Positions 19,159 through 31,166 of a stretch of 31,302 bases of DNA are shown here, in pieces (position 1 is the stretch's first letter; each line of letters starts with the position of its first letter). Below the pieces are notes generated by a model. It was not told the origin of the DNA, made no database searches, and saw only the letters and a list, made by a program, of their open reading frames with translations. Source of the stretch: Thermodesulfobacteriota bacterium. Its GTDB lineage: Bacteria; Desulfobacterota_D; UBA1144; Nemesobacterales; N074bin48. A program made the translations under genes and the position numbers. The stretch covers positions 1 through 31,302 of the forward strand of contig JBFFSH010000027.1 of NCBI GenBank assembly GCA_041572575.1. Direction: 5' to 3'.

Positions 19159-19731
19159 ATGGGAGTAGTTGATGTAAGCAGGTTTCATAAAGGGCTTAAA
19201 ATAGAGTTTGAGGATTCAGTATGGGAAGTTACAGATTACCAGCATTCCAAGATGGGAAGAAGCGGTGCTATTATAACTACAAAGCTTAAAAACATCTTTA
19301 CAGGAGCTGCTCAGGAAAAAAAATTCAGGTCGGGAGATACATTTCAAACCCCTGATTTAGAAAAAAAGCAGATGCAGTATCTATATAAGGATGATATATC
19401 CTTTCACTTTATGGATAACGAAACCTATGATCAGATTGCAATATCACCAGACCAGGTAGGAGACAGCGCAAAATTCTTAAAAGAACAGCAGGATGTGATC
19501 GTAAACTATTATAATGGCGAGCCTATTGGTATAGAGCTTCCTACAACAGTTGATCTCGAGGTTACAGAGACCGATCCTGGTCTTAAGGGTGATACCGTTT
19601 CAGCTTCTACAAAACCTGCAACAGTAGAAACAGGAGCCGTAATAAACGTACCTCTTTTTATAGATATTGGTGAAATTATTAAAGTTGATACAAGAGACGG
19701 CAGTTATGTTGAGAGGGTGAAGAATAAGTAA
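19159..19731 (+). CDS. efp: Elongation factor P (Arg-tipped loop)
   Basis: HSKMGRSGA loop, QYLYKD, FMDNETYDQ, PGLKGDT, KPATVETG, VPLFI. Confidence 0.97.
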   Translation: MGVVDVSRFHKGLKIEFEDSVWEVTDYQHSKMGRSGAIITTKLKNIFTGAAQEKKFRSGDTFQTPDLEKKQMQYLYKDDISFHFMDNETYDQIAISPDQVGDSAKFLKEQQDVIVNYYNGEPIGIELPTTVDLEVTETDPGLKGDTVSASTKPATVETGAVINVPLFIDIGEIIKVDTRDGSYVERVKNK

Positions 19732-23798: not shown

Positions 23799-24095
23799 AT
23801 GGCACAATTCATCGATAATGGCAGTTTTACTATCAAAGGCTTTAAATTATTTTGGAAGATTCGTCATTGGGGTGGGGCGTCTAATGCTTACGAAAATCAT
23901 CGAGGAATAGCAGTATGTGTTAATGCTGAATCTGGTAAAGAAAGAGAACTTATAGTAGAGTTCCCGTTTAATATGTATTTCTTTGAGAAACCAAGATCAC
24001 AGCGTGACTTCGAAGCCAAGTTGTTTCAAGAAGTAGAATTGGCATTAGATCAAGGATGGGATCCTAAGTCACGTGGCAAGGCTAAGACATGGTAG
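23799..24095 (+). CDS. Hypothetical protein
   Basis: 98-codon ORF co-oriented between ogg and tag; no recognisable family. Confidence 0.55.
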   Translation: MAQFIDNGSFTIKGFKLFWKIRHWGGASNAYENHRGIAVCVNAESGKERELIVEFPFNMYFFEKPRSQRDFEAKLFQEVELALDQGWDPKSRGKAKTW

Positions 24096-24797: not shown

Positions 24798-24826
24798 TTG
24801 CTTTTTACCATTAAAAACTTTATATT
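24798..24826 (+). promoter_or_regulatory. Putative sigma70 promoter of leader-cusCBA operon
   Basis: TTGCTT-N17-TATATT, 9 bp before ATG 24836. Confidence 0.45.
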
Positions 24827-24835
24827 AAAACTAAT

Positions 24836-25225
24836 ATGAAAAAGGTTCTATCATTTTTTCTTGCTCTAAATATATTCCTTTGTTATGGCGGGCTGTGTGA
24901 TCTGTGTCATGCGTTAGGCCCTGAGCCGGATACTGCGGCTGACTGTCATTCCATGGGCGCAATGCAGATGGAGCAATCAACCATAGATACATCTTTGGAT
25001 TTTCAGATATCATCTATAGAAGAAAATATATCTCTTTGCCAGTATTTTCTTTTAAGTAAATCTTTTGAGATTGAAGACAATTTGTATGATGGTGAAATAT
25101 TTACAGAGTTATTTATTTCACAGACTAATAATTACAATTATATTTTCGAGAAATCTAGTTTTAAGATACCTGACAGAGCAATACCCACCGAGCTTTTTAT
25201 AAAAAACTCTTCTTATTTAATCTAG
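24836..25225 (+). CDS. Small exported Cys/His/Met protein, putative metal-sensing leader (DUF2946/CutF-like role)
   Basis: Signal-like N-terminus, CYGGLCDLCH, DCHSMGAMQM, and C-terminal PDRAIPTELFIKNSSYLI; first ORF of the metal RND operon. Confidence 0.6.
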   Translation: MKKVLSFFLALNIFLCYGGLCDLCHALGPEPDTAADCHSMGAMQMEQSTIDTSLDFQISSIEENISLCQYFLLSKSFEIEDNLYDGEIFTELFISQTNNYNYIFEKSSFKIPDRAIPTELFIKNSSYLI

Positions 25226-25227
25226 AA

Positions 25228-25321
25228 ATATTTCTCTCCGTTATTTTTTCCCGTTTACAGGGAAGTTTTATCCACTTGGGTTCATTTAGGAACTCTAATT
25301 CTTAACCGTGGAGGGAAATAT
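25228..25321 (+). promoter_or_regulatory. Anti-Shine-Dalgarno stem sequestering cusC RBS/start
   Basis: AUAUUUCUCUCCG (25228..25240) pairs over 13 contiguous bp (two G-U) with UGGAGGGAAAUAU (25309..25321). Confidence 0.65.
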
Positions 25322-26603
25322 GTATTTTTATCTTATTTTAACACTGTTTTTATTTATAAATTCTGCCGTGCTTGAGGCAAAGGAGAGTTTTAGTCTCGAT
25401 AGCGCAATCAGACAGGCTTTGGACAATAATCCTGAAATAAAGGCTGCACAAGCAATGTCTTTAGCTTCTGCTAAGAGACCTACTCAGGTGTCTTCACTTC
25501 CAAATCCAACAATTGGACTCAGGTTTAAAAATGTAAGTTTCTCAGAGATTACGCTTGGTGAAGATCCAAGAACTGATATTCAGGCATATTTTATTCAGGA
25601 TATACCATTTCCAACCAAACTCTCTTCCAAAAGAAAAATTGCCGAGCAGGTATCAGAGGCCCAAAAATGGAAAGCAGAGTCTGTTACAAGAAGAGTTATA
25701 GCAGAGCTCAAAAAAGAGTACTACAACTGGTATCTGATTAGTAAATCACTCGAAATTACAAAACGAAATAAGGAACTTCTGGAGCAATTTGTAAAAACAG
25801 CAGAGATAAAATACGAAGTCGGAAAGGGTATACAGCAGGACGTTATTAAAGCACAAGTGGAACTCTCTTCGTTCATTCATACAGTAGAACACCTGAGTAT
25901 GAAAAAAGAGATCACCGAGGCAAGAATAAAGAAGATATTAAATCTCTCCCAGCATTCTGATATCGGTAGTCCTGAAAAAATAGAGAAAACGGATATTGAC
26001 ATCACACTGGAAAATCTAAGCGAAATGACCAAGAATCAGTCCCCACAATTACTTTCAGAACTCGAGCTTGTTGAGGGTTCAAAAGAACAGCTGCAGCTTG
26101 CAAAAAAGCAGTATCTTCCGGATTTTGTGATTCAGGGCACTTATTTTAACAGAGACGGAGGAACTGATAATTTCGAAGACCTCTGGCAGGTGGGGCTTGG
26201 CCTGAAAGTGCCGCTTTATTTCTGGAGAAAAGAAAAGCCTGCAATACAAGAGGCTCATTTAAACCTTCAGGCTAGTAAGGATAGATATGATGATAGTACG
26301 TCAGAGATTTTGTTTGAGATCAAGGATAAATATATTTCTGCTAGTACTGCAGACAGGCTCATGGGCTTGTATAAAGATGGAATCATACCTCAGTCACAGA
26401 TTTCCCTTGAGTCTGCAATTTCCGGCTATCAGGTGGGTGATGTGGATTTTCTTACACTACTTAATAATCTCATAACCCTATTTAATTTTGAGATTGAGTA
26501 CTACAAACAGCTTGCCGAGCATGAGATATCTGTAGCAATGCTTGAGCAGATATCGGGAGTAGATTTTAATAAAACAGAGTCTGGTAATCAGGGGAGAAAT
26601 TGA
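25320..26603 (+). CDS. TolC/CusC-family outer-membrane efflux protein
   Basis: Signal peptide, ALDNNPEI, LPNP, YLPDF, SGYQVGDVDFLTLL. Start ATG 25320 after GGAGGG RBS. Confidence 0.92.
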   Translation: MYFYLILTLFLFINSAVLEAKESFSLDSAIRQALDNNPEIKAAQAMSLASAKRPTQVSSLPNPTIGLRFKNVSFSEITLGEDPRTDIQAYFIQDIPFPTKLSSKRKIAEQVSEAQKWKAESVTRRVIAELKKEYYNWYLISKSLEITKRNKELLEQFVKTAEIKYEVGKGIQQDVIKAQVELSSFIHTVEHLSMKKEITEARIKKILNLSQHSDIGSPEKIEKTDIDITLENLSEMTKNQSPQLLSELELVEGSKEQLQLAKKQYLPDFVIQGTYFNRDGGTDNFEDLWQVGLGLKVPLYFWRKEKPAIQEAHLNLQASKDRYDDSTSEILFEIKDKYISASTADRLMGLYKDGIIPQSQISLESAISGYQVGDVDFLTLLNNLITLFNFEIEYYKQLAEHEISVAMLEQISGVDFNKTESGNQGRN

Positions 26604-26604
26604 G

Positions 26605-28035
26605 ATGAAATTTAAAAACAATAAAGCCGTAGTAGGGTTAATCTTAATTATTATTACAGGATTAGCCTTGTTTGGATCAAAAATACCTGTTGTAAATAAA
26701 ATCCCATTATTTACACAAAAACACGAGCATGAATATATGCCGGTAATGGATGAGGATGGGGCTATAGAGTACTGGACATGCGCCATGCATCCGTCTGTGA
26801 GGCTTGATGAACCGGGTCAGTGCCCTATATGCGGGATGGATCTAACATCTGTTGAAAAACCAATAAAACATAAGAGCAGCGATATGGATAACGCATCATC
26901 ACAGAATATGCATGACCATAGTGGTCATGGCACAGGTGTGATGCCCAAAAAACAAGAAGATGGACAAGTAAGTTCAGAGTTTATAGTAAGCCCACAAAGG
27001 CAGCAGATGATTGGTGTTAAGACAGAGATAGTCTCTATTCGGTCTATGAACAGGACGATTCGAACAGTTGGTAAGGTTGAGCTTGATGAAACTAAAATAG
27101 AACACATACACACAAAAGTAAGCGGTTGGATCGATAAAGTGTTTGTAGACTTTACATGGAAGCATGTAATGAAGGGCGACCCACTATTTTCTATATACAG
27201 CCCCGATCTTGTATCCACACAACAGGAGTACCTGCTTGCACTCAAATCAGAGAATGTTCTTGGAAAAAGCGAGTTTTCCGAGATTTCAGGCGGCGCAAAG
27301 TCGCTGGCTGAGGCTACAAGAAGAAGGCTTAAACTCTGGGATATCTCAGAATCACAGATAAGAGAACTGGAAAGAACAGGAAAGGTAAAAAAGAGCCTTG
27401 TTATTTACTCTCCCATAACAGGTCATGTTTCGTTTAAAAATGCATTTGAGAATATGTATGTTGAGCCTAAGACAACAATTTTTACAATTGCCGATCACTC
27501 TACTGCATGGGTAAATGCTGATATATATGAGGATGAAATATCTCTGGTTAAACCGGGTCAGCATGCTTCTATTACAGTTACGGCACTCCCGGGTGAGGCG
27601 TTCCATGGACAGATCACATTCGTATGGCCGCATCTTATGAAAAAAACCAGAACTTCCAAGGCAAGGCTGGAGTTTCCAAACCCTGATCTGAAGCTCCTGC
27701 CAGAGATGTTTGCTGATGTAACTATTGAAATACCCAGTGAAGATAAACTCTCAGTACCTACAAGCGCAGTACTGAGAACTGGCAAGCAGAATATAGTGTT
27801 TGTTGATAAAGGTGAAGGGGCGCTGCAAATAAGAAAGGTCAAACTTGGACAGAAATCTGAGCTGTACTATGAAGTGCTTAAAGGTTTAAAAGAAGGTGAC
27901 AGGGTGGTAACAAGCGCAAACTTCCTGATTGATTCGGAAAGCAAGGTGAGGGCTGCTGTGGCTACGTGGGGAGATGATGATCAGTCAGAAACTACCGAAG
28001 ATATAAAATCAGATAACCATGAGAGTATGAAATGA
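26605..28035 (+). CDS. cusB: CusB-like RND membrane-fusion protein with N-terminal heavy-metal-binding domain
   Basis: WTCAMHP...PGQCPICGMDL, His-rich MHDHSGHG, GWIDKV, YSPDLVSTQQEYL, NFLIDSES. Confidence 0.9.
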   Translation: MKFKNNKAVVGLILIIITGLALFGSKIPVVNKIPLFTQKHEHEYMPVMDEDGAIEYWTCAMHPSVRLDEPGQCPICGMDLTSVEKPIKHKSSDMDNASSQNMHDHSGHGTGVMPKKQEDGQVSSEFIVSPQRQQMIGVKTEIVSIRSMNRTIRTVGKVELDETKIEHIHTKVSGWIDKVFVDFTWKHVMKGDPLFSIYSPDLVSTQQEYLLALKSENVLGKSEFSEISGGAKSLAEATRRRLKLWDISESQIRELERTGKVKKSLVIYSPITGHVSFKNAFENMYVEPKTTIFTIADHSTAWVNADIYEDEISLVKPGQHASITVTALPGEAFHGQITFVWPHLMKKTRTSKARLEFPNPDLKLLPEMFADVTIEIPSEDKLSVPTSAVLRTGKQNIVFVDKGEGALQIRKVKLGQKSELYYEVLKGLKEGDRVVTSANFLIDSESKVRAAVATWGDDDQSETTEDIKSDNHESMK

Positions 28036-31000
28036 TAGAAAAGATAATAGAGTATTCCGCAAAAAATAAATTTATAACAATCCTGGGAGTCCTTTTTATC
28101 TCGGCATGGGGATTTTGGGCCATGAGCAACACTCCTCTCGACGCAATACCCGATCTTTCCGATGCTCAGGTAATAGTATTTACAGAGTGGAAAGGCAGGA
28201 GTCCTGACCTTGTAGAGGATCAGATTTCTTATCCTATTGTTACAACAATGATTGCTGCGCCAAATGTTAAATTTGTAAGAGGCCAGTCATTCTTCGGACT
28301 TTCTTTTGTCTATATAATTTTTGAAGACGGTACGGACATTTACTGGGCAAGAAGCAGGGTGTTAGAGTATCTGAACCAGGTCTCGGGAAAGCTTCCTGAA
28401 GGAGTTAATCCCACACTGGGTCCGGATGCTACGGGTGTGGGATGGGTTTATCAGTATGCGCTTGTGGATGAAAGCGGAAATAACGATCTGTCTGATTTAC
28501 GCACTTTTCAGGACTGGTATCTGCGCTACTGGCTTGAATCTGTCCCGGGTGTAGCAGAGGTAGCAAGCGTGGGAGGATTTGAAAAACAGTATCAGGTAGA
28601 GATTGATCCCAATAAGCTTGTAGCTTACGATATACCGCTTAATAAAATAATTTCTGCTATTAGAAGGAGCAATAATGATGTGGGGGGAAGAGTAGTAGAA
28701 TTTGCCTCGACAGAATATTTTGTAAGAGGCAGGGGGTATATCAAATCCACTTCGGATATAGAAAAAATACCGGTAGGAGTAGGAAAAGACGGTACTCCGA
28801 TTTATATAAGAGATATTGCAGATGTTCATATGGGCCCTGAAATCAGAAGAGGGCTTGCCGAATTAAACGGTAAAGGTGAGGCGGTAGGCGGTATAGTAGT
28901 AATGCGCTACGGAGAAAATGCCTTAGAAGTGATAAGTAACATTAAGGCAAAAATACAAGAGATACAGCCATCTTTACCCAAAGGAGTTAAAATTGTAACC
29001 ACATACGACCGCTCCGGTCTAATAAACCGCGCAATTGATACACTAAAGGGGAAATTAATAGAAGAAATCATCATTGTAAGCATAGTAATTATTATATTTC
29101 TATTTCATCTAAGAAGCGCAGCAGTTCCCATTCTAACTATCCCCTTTGCAGTACTAATGGCATTTATACCGATGTTTTACCTTAAGAATACATCAAACAT
29201 CATGTCCCTCGGCGGTATAGCCATAGCAATTGGCGCCATGGTTGATGCGTCTATTGTTCTTGTGGAAAATGTACATAAGAGGCTAGAGGGTAAGATTCTT
29301 GGTGATAATCAACAAAAGAGAACCGAAATAATTATAGATGCCATGAAAGAGGTAGGAAAGCCCATATTTTTTGCTCTTCTCATAATAACGATATCATTTC
29401 TGCCAATATTTACTTTGGAAGCACAGGAAGGAAGGCTATTCAGGCCACTTGCATATACAAAGACATTCTCTATGTTTTTTGCATCCCTTCTTGCTATTAC
29501 TCTTACCCCAGCGCTTATTGTTTTGTTTATTAAAGGTGAGATTAAATCTGAAGAAAACAATCCGATTAACAGGTTTTTAATAAAAATGTATGATCCTGTT
29601 GTAAGATTTGCTCTAAAATTCAAAACTGCTGTAATAGTTGTCTCTGTCCTGATATTAATAGTCACTTATCTTCCCTACAAAAAACTTGGCGAAGAATTTA
29701 TGCCGCCTCTTAATGAAGGCAGCATCCTTTATATGCCAACAGCCGTACCGGGGATGTCAATAACAGAAGCATCAAAAATTCTTCATATTCAGGATAAAAT
29801 GCTCATGAAATTTCCTGAGGTACAGACAGTATTCGGGAAAATCGGAAGGGCCAAGACAGCTACTGACCCAGCTCCGCTCAGTATGGTTGAAACAGTTATC
29901 ACTTTAAAGCCGGAGAAAGAGTGGAGGGCTGGAATGACCTGGGACAAGCTTATATCTGAGATGAATACGACAATGAAATTTCCGGGAATGGCAAATATTT
30001 TCTGGATGCCCATTCAAACAAGAACCGAGATGCTATCAACTGGTTTTAGAAGTAATCTTGGTATTAAAGTATTCGGTCCGGATCTGAATATTATTGAAAA
30101 TATCGGAATTGAGATTGAAAAAATTCTTACCGAAGTTCCTGGTACAAGAAGTGTTTTTGCTGACAGGGTTACAGGCGGATATTTTATGGATTTCAATATA
30201 AGCCGGGAGAGAGCAGCCAGGTATGGTCTCACGGTGGGTGATGTCGAAGATGTAATAGAAAGTGCTATTGGAGGTAAGAATATATCACACACTGTAGAAG
30301 GTCAGGAAAGATATCCTATCAATGTCAGATATCAAAGGGGGTTCAGGAACGATCTTGAGGCGCTTGGCAGTGTGCTTGTATCAAGCCCAACAGGAGTAAA
30401 TGTTCCTCTTTCATTATTAACGGATATAAAATTTACAACCGGCGCACCACAGATAAGAAACGAGGACGGGCAGAAAGTTGGCTTTGTAAATGTCGATGTC
30501 TCAGACGGCGACTATGCCGGATTTGTTGATAAAGCACAAAAAACTATTAATGAAAAAATTTCACTTCCTAAAGGCTATAAGCTCGAGTGGGCCGGTCAGT
30601 ATGAATATTTGCAAAGGGTTAAAGAAAAATTAAGTTATGTGGTTCCTGTTACGATTCTAATAATTTTCATTCTGCTATTTCTCAATTTTAACTCGTTAAT
30701 TGAGTCATTGATTGTACTCCTGTCGGTACCGTTTTCTCTGGTAGGAAGCATATGGTTTCTAAGTATCCTCGGATACAATTTAAGTATAGCTGTCTGGGTA
30801 GGAATAATAGCCCTTGCAGGTCTTGCCGCTCAGACAGGAGTAGTGATGATCATATATTTGGATGAGTTTTATGATAAAATGGTTGCCGAAGGAAAGGTTA
30901 GCCTGAAAAATCTCGAGCAGGCCATACACGATGGTGCGGTGCAAAGAGTTAGGCCAAAGATGATGACGGTGATGGCTCTTATTATGGGTCTATTACCACT

Positions 31001-31166
31001 TATGTGGAGTCATGGCACGGGAGCTGATGTTATGAAAAGAATTGCAGCACCTATGGTAGGCGGGCTTGTTACATCAACTATTCTTACTCTTGTAATAATC
31101 CCTGTAATATATGCAATTTGGAGGGGCAGGGAATTAGATAAACATATAGAGAAAACTAAATTATAA
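28032..31166 (+). CDS. cusA: CusA/SilA-type Cu(I)/Ag(I) RND efflux transporter
   Basis: PLDAIPDLSD, LGPDATGVGWVYQY, GAMVDA, EFMPPLNEG..LYMP, DPAPLSMVET, RVRPKMMT, MKRIAAPMVGG. Confidence 0.96.
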   Translation: MIEKIIEYSAKNKFITILGVLFISAWGFWAMSNTPLDAIPDLSDAQVIVFTEWKGRSPDLVEDQISYPIVTTMIAAPNVKFVRGQSFFGLSFVYIIFEDGTDIYWARSRVLEYLNQVSGKLPEGVNPTLGPDATGVGWVYQYALVDESGNNDLSDLRTFQDWYLRYWLESVPGVAEVASVGGFEKQYQVEIDPNKLVAYDIPLNKIISAIRRSNNDVGGRVVEFASTEYFVRGRGYIKSTSDIEKIPVGVGKDGTPIYIRDIADVHMGPEIRRGLAELNGKGEAVGGIVVMRYGENALEVISNIKAKIQEIQPSLPKGVKIVTTYDRSGLINRAIDTLKGKLIEEIIIVSIVIIIFLFHLRSAAVPILTIPFAVLMAFIPMFYLKNTSNIMSLGGIAIAIGAMVDASIVLVENVHKRLEGKILGDNQQKRTEIIIDAMKEVGKPIFFALLIITISFLPIFTLEAQEGRLFRPLAYTKTFSMFFASLLAITLTPALIVLFIKGEIKSEENNPINRFLIKMYDPVVRFALKFKTAVIVVSVLILIVTYLPYKKLGEEFMPPLNEGSILYMPTAVPGMSITEASKILHIQDKMLMKFPEVQTVFGKIGRAKTATDPAPLSMVETVITLKPEKEWRAGMTWDKLISEMNTTMKFPGMANIFWMPIQTRTEMLSTGFRSNLGIKVFGPDLNIIENIGIEIEKILTEVPGTRSVFADRVTGGYFMDFNISRERAARYGLTVGDVEDVIESAIGGKNISHTVEGQERYPINVRYQRGFRNDLEALGSVLVSSPTGVNVPLSLLTDIKFTTGAPQIRNEDGQKVGFVNVDVSDGDYAGFVDKAQKTINEKISLPKGYKLEWAGQYEYLQRVKEKLSYVVPVTILIIFILLFLNFNSLIESLIVLLSVPFSLVGSIWFLSILGYNLSIAVWVGIIALAGLAAQTGVVMIIYLDEFYDKMVAEGKVSLKNLEQAIHDGAVQRVRPKMMTVMALIMGLLPLMWSHGTGADVMKRIAAPMVGGLVTSTILTLVIIPVIYAIWRGRELDKHIEKTKL

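Follow-up and report, generated by a model that had tools for sequence, protein, structure and literature searches.

A putative CutF/CruR-like leader peptide with a probable pause at termination, before the cusCBA operon of a Thermodesulfobacteriota bacterium

Introduction

How copper and silver efflux may be controlled in a lineage without detectable CueR, CusR, or CsoR is the question raised by the DNA analyzed here, a stretch of 31,302 nt from a Thermodesulfobacteriota bacterium (NCBI GenBank assembly GCA_041572575.1, contig JBFFSH010000027.1, positions 1 to 31,302; hereafter the window, whose numbering we use throughout, the features of the operon being all on the forward strand). Near its end lies a cusCBA operon that opens with an ORF for a small, putatively exported protein, and this leader offers an explanation. 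From sequence comparison and RNA modeling, we lean toward the reading that it acts in cis as a copper/silver sensor, which would hold the ribosome at its last codon or stop, open an RNA stem, and let cusCBA be translated.

The stem mechanism of CutF provides a precedent (PMC9973294; bioRxiv 2025.02.05.636593). As defined in Ozturk 2023 (PMC9973294), CutF-like proteins are shorter than 150 aa, carry a signal peptide, and have PP in their last 15 residues; according to the same source, OEP/CusC genes are among their main neighbors and the commonest of them, so that action on an RND pump, as inferred in the initial annotation, is not new. EF-P is described as the factor tuning CutF, the arrest at PPP being EF-P-dependent. 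CzcI, which in the account of PMC9973294 lacks a C-terminal proline motif, was suggested there to be a metal-sensing regulator. As for arrest at the stop codon itself, it has been described in three exported leaders of sec genes, encoded before secA/secDF (Fujiwara 2024, PMC10987492). In our literature search, which lay mostly outside subscription papers, CutF and CruR were the only tested metal-sensing leaders found, both of them proline-dependent, and neither the leader family presented below nor a metal-controlled termination arrest was described.

Results

The leader ORF (24836..25225, 129 aa, ATG to TAG) belongs to a clade devoid of PP within an unnamed, order-wide family. It is followed, after a gap of 94 nt, by the genes of a pump whose proposed identity as cusCBA is borne out by PF02321 for the cusC-like outer membrane efflux protein (OEP; 25320..26603, E 3e-47) and by Pfam and NCBIfam for the cusB-like adaptor with its N-terminal heavy-metal-binding domain (26605..28035; PF16576 and PF19335, with NF007303 matched below its cut-off) and for the heavy-metal RND transporter cusA (28032..31166; TIGR00914, over cut-off). 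The cusC ATG at 25320 is preceded by GGAGGG. In a pairwise alignment of CusA to its E. coli counterpart (chain numbering offset by 7), the Met triad aligning with M573, M623, and M672, which we take to be the Cu/Ag site of E. coli CusA, is kept in full.

The claim that no regulator gene is adjacent holds upstream of the operon, the contig stopping 136 nt 3' of cusA. Genome-wide, a search of this 96%-complete genome found no CueR, CusR, or CsoR; the four MerR-family matches are a CarH-like protein and three others without the CueR-type cysteine pair, all response regulators stay below the CusR/CopR cut-off, and the single full-length OmpR-type gene adjoins a phosphate-binding-protein-like gene, a pair that is presumably PhoB/PstS. 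Rho and EF-P are both encoded. The sole efp match of the genome (elongation factor P; 19159..19731) lies about 5 kb upstream of the leader, a position that is probably a coincidence, and a 98-aa ORF at 23799..24095, between two DNA glycosylase genes, has no Pfam or NCBIfam match. At another locus (L108:1390-3167), a cysteine-free MerR-like HTH gene stands directly before a DNA-polymerase-like ORF, which we assume to encode a Y-family DNA polymerase.

A predicted sigma70-type promoter (24798..24826; -35 TTGCTT, 17 nt, -10 TATATT) ends 9 nt before the leader ATG, so that the mRNA would be leaderless or nearly so. The same layout recurs in the same-genus genome G001 and at L091, L092, and L098, and nearly so at L103. 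Across the family, a promoter-like site scoring at least 8.5 is found 4-19 nt from the ATG of 49 of 65 leaders versus 89 of 1402 control ORFs (the window site, kept in the clade, scores 8.0, below this bar), when a good SD precedes 3 of 64 leaders versus 397 of 1404 controls and is lacking before the window leader. A MerR-type promoter was considered and rejected, the spacers being mostly 16-17 nt and no upstream inverted repeat being common to the members. The constitutive look of this promoter fits a rival explanation, plain translational coupling. Here the leader would be an exported accessory protein that binds metal and stands in for CusF or CzcI, with a hydrophobic tail serving for degradation or interaction; every terminating ribosome would open the stem, so that cusCBA would be coupled to the leader but not metal-regulated at this step. 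We deem this unlikely, and the failure to find any metal-responsive transcription factor in the genome speaks against it.

The distribution of the leader bears on the same choice. A profile built from 23 sequences yields 66 matches, spread over 50 of the order's 101 genomes, and no match in the phylum's other family, represented by 19 genomes; it also matches 103 cluster representatives. A relative with 52% identity bears the label Candidatus Dadabacteria in its source. At 28 of 30 cusC-orthologue loci, the leader heads the operon (23 by motif, 1 by eye, 1 cut by the contig end, and 3 lying further upstream, with small exported-protein genes inserted between leader and cusC); as to the remaining two, one contig began too near and one locus had no leader found. 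Among 61 sampled genomes, which are kin and not independent, a leader is present in 32 of the 33 with a close cusC versus 1 of the 28 without, and this single leader precedes a multicopper oxidase. Paralogues of the leader head multicopper oxidase and other RND operons, and a scan of 24 of the 67 listed downstream ORFs returned OEP/RND components, multicopper oxidases, a CDF transporter, a cupredoxin, cytochromes c, and unannotated small exported proteins. Judged by its sequences and contexts, this is a conserved, cis-placed family heading metal-efflux or multicopper-oxidase operons. That the leader always comes first, 88-213 nt before the next gene, argues against an accessory protein and is in line with the cis-acting sensor that we favor.

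Within the leader, the initially reported CDLCH (residues 21-25, 24896..24910), CH (residues 37-38, 24944..24949), PDRAIP (25169..25186), and tail LFIKNSSYLI are present. Across the family, conservation is confined to the Cys and His residues and the spacing between them, together with the 13 C-terminal residues. In 77 sequences, Cys16, which falls in a hydrophobic export signal or anchor (about residues 1-26, 24836..24913), and Cys68 (25037..25039, 61 residues before the C-terminus and part of a CC in most relatives) are invariant, while His38, Pro117, Ser125, and Leu128 each reach at least 90%; Cys37 and His38, both nearly invariant in alignment A1, are candidate metal ligands. The CxxC-H, to which the sensing role had been attributed, does not qualify as a family motif, since CxxC is carried by 4 of 92 relatives (3 of 65 genomic leaders) and is missing in G001. 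An AlphaFold2 model of the window leader, too poor to serve as query for a fold search (pLDDT 59, pTM 0.22), contains a sole helix at residues 2-17, the remainder being predicted disordered. Atlas structure matches all stay at TM<=0.30. A lipoprotein reading was set aside, a lipobox occurring in just 1 of 75 leaders and an AxA-like site in 43 of 75. The initial assignment to the CutF/CruR kind is thus upheld in that the leader is conserved, cis-placed, predicted disordered, and export-signal-bearing. A chain predicted to be unfolded and about 20% conserved outside its motifs is hardly what an accessory protein would lead one to expect, and a free chaperone or degron would have no need for the distance from the last Cys to the C-terminus to be held at 59-62 residues, as it is in 69 of 92 representatives (cluster representatives of 100-160 aa).

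The C-terminal tail (PTELFIKNSSYLI and the stop, 25184..25225) is the candidate termination-arrest segment, as suggested by the family logo and codon use. In the 92 representatives, it takes the form H-x-P-P-[DE]-[LI]-[FYQ]-[LIV]-x-[NK]-S-[ST]-[FL]-L-[LI], its last residue standing directly before the stop. Of 60 genomic leaders, 59 retain Ser(-5) and 59 retain Leu(-2), with 4 and 5 codons in use, respectively; such a free use of synonymous codons indicates that the tail is constrained as a peptide. Some periplasmic proteases recognize non-polar C-termini, which counts for the reading of the tail as a degradation signal. PP stands at -13/-12 in 72 of the 92 representatives, and within the last 15 residues in 77 of 92 relatives and 56 of 65 genomic leaders; the window protein has PT instead. 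In a quick tree, it falls in a PP-less clade of seven members (SH-aLRT 98) that retains both the tail and the post-stop stem described below, and scattered PP losses occur outside this clade too. The retention of PP elsewhere in the family suggests that it still has some role.

With regard to known families, the window protein fits the CutF-like rules of length and signal (129 aa, hydrophobic N-terminal helix) and of context (a same-strand metal-homeostasis gene within 1000 nt) but fails the PP rule. It has no match to DUF2946 (PF11162) at E<=1, of which 3 of 77 relatives are weak matches (best E 0.018), and it lacks the features of that family, the central CXXC being unconserved (the one in the window adjoins the signal segment) and the C-terminal RAPP absent. 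Nor does it match NF047658, NF045614, or NF033807, the first of which has no match in its genome either. Among relatives, CopL (NF033807) reaches a best, sub-threshold E of 0.0013, and the sub-threshold matches to HYC_CC_PP, CzcI, CopL, and DUF2946 concern 1-3 sequences each, beside equally strong noise matches. An Atlas feature search of a relative, limited to named clusters, gave CzcI, DUF6769, DUF8199, DUF2946, and DUF6660 clusters as leads. The CzcI-type clusters among these look-alikes (0.93-0.94, with low shared-feature counts) lend something to the CzcI-like accessory role, without changing our preference for a sensor.

The RNA between leader and cusC is predicted to fold as initially proposed. 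In the minimum-energy RNAfold structure of 25200..25340, an anti-SD arm located 2 nt 3' of the leader stop (25228..25240, retrieved by RNAfold, duplex, and clade comparison) pairs over 13 bp, two of them G-U, with a 3' arm (25309..25321) made of the cusC SD GGAGGG (25310..25315) and the first two bases of the ATG; the helix encloses two smaller hairpins (25247..25265 and 25278..25295), whose sequences vary among relatives. The whole fold is moderately unusual (-28.1 kcal/mol, z -1.76, 9 of 200 shuffles being equally good), and the duplex of stop region and cusC SD, at -17.1 kcal/mol, is equaled by none of 213 same-strand gene junctions of the genome (mean -7.5 kcal/mol, sd 2.6). Against composition-matched shuffles, 1 of 30 equals the window in ribosome-induced opening and 2 of 30 in closing energy. 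In the PP-less clade (14 metagenome loci, many of them near-copies amounting to about 4-5 types, and one genome locus), the same outer stem with differing inner hairpins is found in all 14 loci with a downstream start. The stem is conserved in the clade but lacks two-sided covariation. Nine aligned sequences have 89.7% of their cells paired, where slid controls give 50-72%; four changes are one-sided, and none affects both sides of a pair, because the 3' arm is the invariant SD. The inner hairpins are probably not intrinsic terminators; two terminator-like matches were obtained, but the U-tract after the first hairpin is missing in L093 and L103. A search for known RNA families gave a single chance snoRNA match under its gathering score, and three RNA-library contigs (X1, X2, X5) show flat depth, possibly from DNA, and no ends.

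Family-wide, the stem does not stand as one conserved helix, the partner of the SD shifting among members: it is post-stop in short spacers, inside the tail codons elsewhere, and in local hairpins in others. In 60 of the 66 unique loci (one fragment, one locus without a downstream gene, and four uncertain starts being omitted), pairing (P>0.4) between the SD and the surroundings of the leader stop, from -30 to +20, is predicted in 28 cases versus 16 of 160 controls (the first 160 of 213). Cognate leader/SD pairs are just slightly stronger than non-cognate ones (-10.7 versus -9.8 kcal/mol), being better in 13 of 20 genera, and a synonymous-codon test of the tail as anti-SD gave a weak signal (mean rank 0.57). 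At nine loci (L004, L005, L054, L056, L057, L060, L064, L067, L072), a predicted anti-SD lies within the coding tail, around codons -8 to -5, its partner being the atypical SD ACGGAG, which implies that the arm has shifted relative to the stop in evolution. Separately, a nested hairpin CTCTGC...GTGGTATAG...TATCAC...GCAGAG recurs at seven loci of family f7 (L017, L019, L050, L051, L061, L065, L071), beginning 15-25 nt past the leader stop; it might act as a pause site or form a structured RNA.

The composition of the stop region opens a second alternative, namely Rho-dependent attenuation as in CruR and TnaC, where the C-rich, G-poor region would be a rut site, a metal-held ribosome would block Rho, and the stem would be secondary. 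Of 60 members, 47 have an anti-SD-like or C-rich word in the first 16 nt past the stop, including members without a predicted SD helix, versus 18 of 213 controls; over -40..+25, the C/G ratio is 3.2 in the family versus 0.8 in controls, with YC counts of 14 versus 4; the rho gene product is present; and CruR is described as acting through Rho (PMC9426467). In the clade, however, pairing with the SD ties up the C-rich element in a helix of 12-13 bp, when rut sites are unstructured, and post-stop/SD pairing is seen in 8 of 10 members with an intergenic region of at most 110 nt versus 0 of 65 controls (a post hoc split). As the sole explanation, attenuation by Rho seems to us rather improbable, a notch below the accessory-protein reading, although it is compatible with a pause at the stop and may apply to long-spacer members.

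Where the ribosome would have to stand was examined with a model in which no mRNA base within 16 nt of the P site may pair. Opening the cusC site of the window costs 14.1 kcal/mol in free mRNA, and 14.8, 15.0, and 13.0 with a ribosome at codons -12, -6, and -3, respectively; a ribosome on the last codon lowers the cost to 7.8. Five loci of the PP-less clade give the same pattern. In this model, the proposed geometry of a ribosome paused near the leader stop and opening the stem is therefore sound, and the switch point is the last codon or the stop and not PDRAIP. Among family members, 40 of 60 show a drop of 2 kcal/mol or more at the last codon, versus 11 of the first 110 controls; at codon -12, the figures are 6 of 60 and 8 of the same 110. 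The release is partial, the SD being about 0.17 unpaired even with the ribosome on the last codon, since the first inner hairpin arm offers it another pairing partner. Against composition-matched shuffles, the family-wide effect disappears (ribosome-induced opening 2.8 versus 2.3 kcal/mol, real sequences being higher in 8 of 20 genera), and the window itself remains significant at 1 of 30; much of the family signal is thus C-richness, which leaves room for Rho attenuation or for coupling to ordinary termination. As a matter of fact, normal termination would cover the same anti-SD arm, a point in favor of the accessory-protein reading.

The same model weighs on a third alternative, elongation arrest as in CutF and CruR, either at PDRAIP, taken in the initial annotation for a degenerate RAPP, or at the PP position of the family. 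Cys68 lies 47-50 residues from the PP position, close to the 45 residues given for CruR (PMC9426467), PP is widely kept among relatives, and genus g16 has a predicted anti-SD inside its tail codons. Yet a ribosome at the PDRAIP or PP codons leaves the cusC SD closed, the residues 3' of the prolines are more conserved than the prolines themselves and would be unneeded if arrest were at PP, and the degenerate-RAPP idea has to be abandoned for the clade, which shows RESL, RASP, KVSC, KEYL, or RATL in place of RAIP, G001 having neither proline. We consider this alternative very unlikely, and pausing at termination remains our preferred reading.

Discussion

Under the reading that we favor, a constitutive sigma70-type promoter would yield a near-leaderless mRNA, from which the nascent leader chain would be exported co-translationally. 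With roughly 60 residues between Cys68 and the stop, Cys16, Cys37-His38, and Cys68 would have arrived at the membrane or passed it by the time the stop is read, and metal binding may then alter the pull on the chain, so that LxLxNSSYLI in the tunnel would delay release. The ribosome parked there would cover the anti-SD arm and perhaps protect a C-rich Rho site as well. On this basis, the window leader is probably a switch of the CutF/CruR kind that pauses at termination, its metal sensing and stalling being putative; by analogy, there is a fair probability that it works like CutF, outside DUF2946 and the published CutF-like rule set. A more demanding version, to which we give only tentative credence, is that of a proline-independent termination arrest through LxLxNSSFLI-stop by a metal-sensing nascent chain. 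This chain would come from a constitutive, leaderless transcript, and these bacteria would have no other copper/silver regulator. If this were true, it would be the first termination-arrest peptide controlled by an extracytoplasmic ligand, and the PP-less clade would show that the prolines of the leader family are dispensable.

The likeness to known systems is partial in each case. With CutF-cutO of Rhodobacter capsulatus, as described in PMC9973294, bioRxiv 10.1101/2025.02.05.636593, and PMC8456105, the leader shares a small, exported, poorly folded, Cys-bearing, operon-first protein, a copper-detoxification operon, a stem hiding the next SD, and the same predicted direction (metal on); a stem of this type within reach of the leader ribosome was computed here for the clade and inconsistently across the family. 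According to these sources, however, CutF has CxxxC, ends with PPPRL, and arrests at PPP, whereas the family has no conserved CxxC/CxxxC and places PP 12-13 residues from the end, before a conserved tail, the window clade being without PP. One of the 29 CutF-like clusters of PMC9973294 might share this tail. CruR (Bp2923) of Bordetella pertussis, a DUF2946 protein, is alike in its fixed Cys-to-C-terminal-motif spacing and the C-rich region near its stop, but is reported to differ by CXXC, RAPP three residues from the end, the use of Rho, and a copper response that turns an importer off (PMC9426467). CzcI of Cupriavidus metallidurans and the CutF-like leaders of OEP/CusC genes likewise are small leader-like genes before heavy-metal RND operons in PMC9973294, yet NF045614 is matched sub-threshold only, by 3 of 77 relatives (best E 0.044). 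The name HYC_CC_PP (NF047658) evokes the same motif order of an early Cys motif, CC, and PP, but the matches are weak (3 of 77, best E 0.023, and 2 of 23; best E overall 0.011), and no paper using this term was found in our literature search. The sec-gene leaders likewise are exported, have a conserved C-terminus that runs up to the stop, and stall when the stop codon occupies the A site; they differ in preceding secA/secDF and in their tails, and the accessible parts of the source describe no metal ligands for them (PMC10987492).

Compared with the proline-dependent leaders, this family moves the conserved segment to the residues after PP, and one of its clades drops PP altogether, which allows a direct test of whether an extracytoplasmic metal signal controls peptide release or elongation. 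A further implication is that filters based on prolines, like that behind the 5,334 catalogued CutF-like proteins, may miss real members.

The surroundings of the leaders hold further exported proteins. Between leader and cusC, 1-3 small ones (117-160 aa) are encoded at L009, L017, L019, L026, L028, L050, L051, L061, L068, and L073, mostly in family f7; they are His/Met-rich and helical, of a C-x-C..H-x-x-C-A-x-x-C type, or lipoprotein-like, the representatives scanned have no Pfam match, and they may be undescribed periplasmic metal chaperones. A tblastn search of plasmids for the leader gave chance matches only. At L082, L089, and L090, a leader paralogue heads genes for an unannotated exported protein of 370-390 aa, a MetA-type outer-membrane protein, and a cytochrome c.
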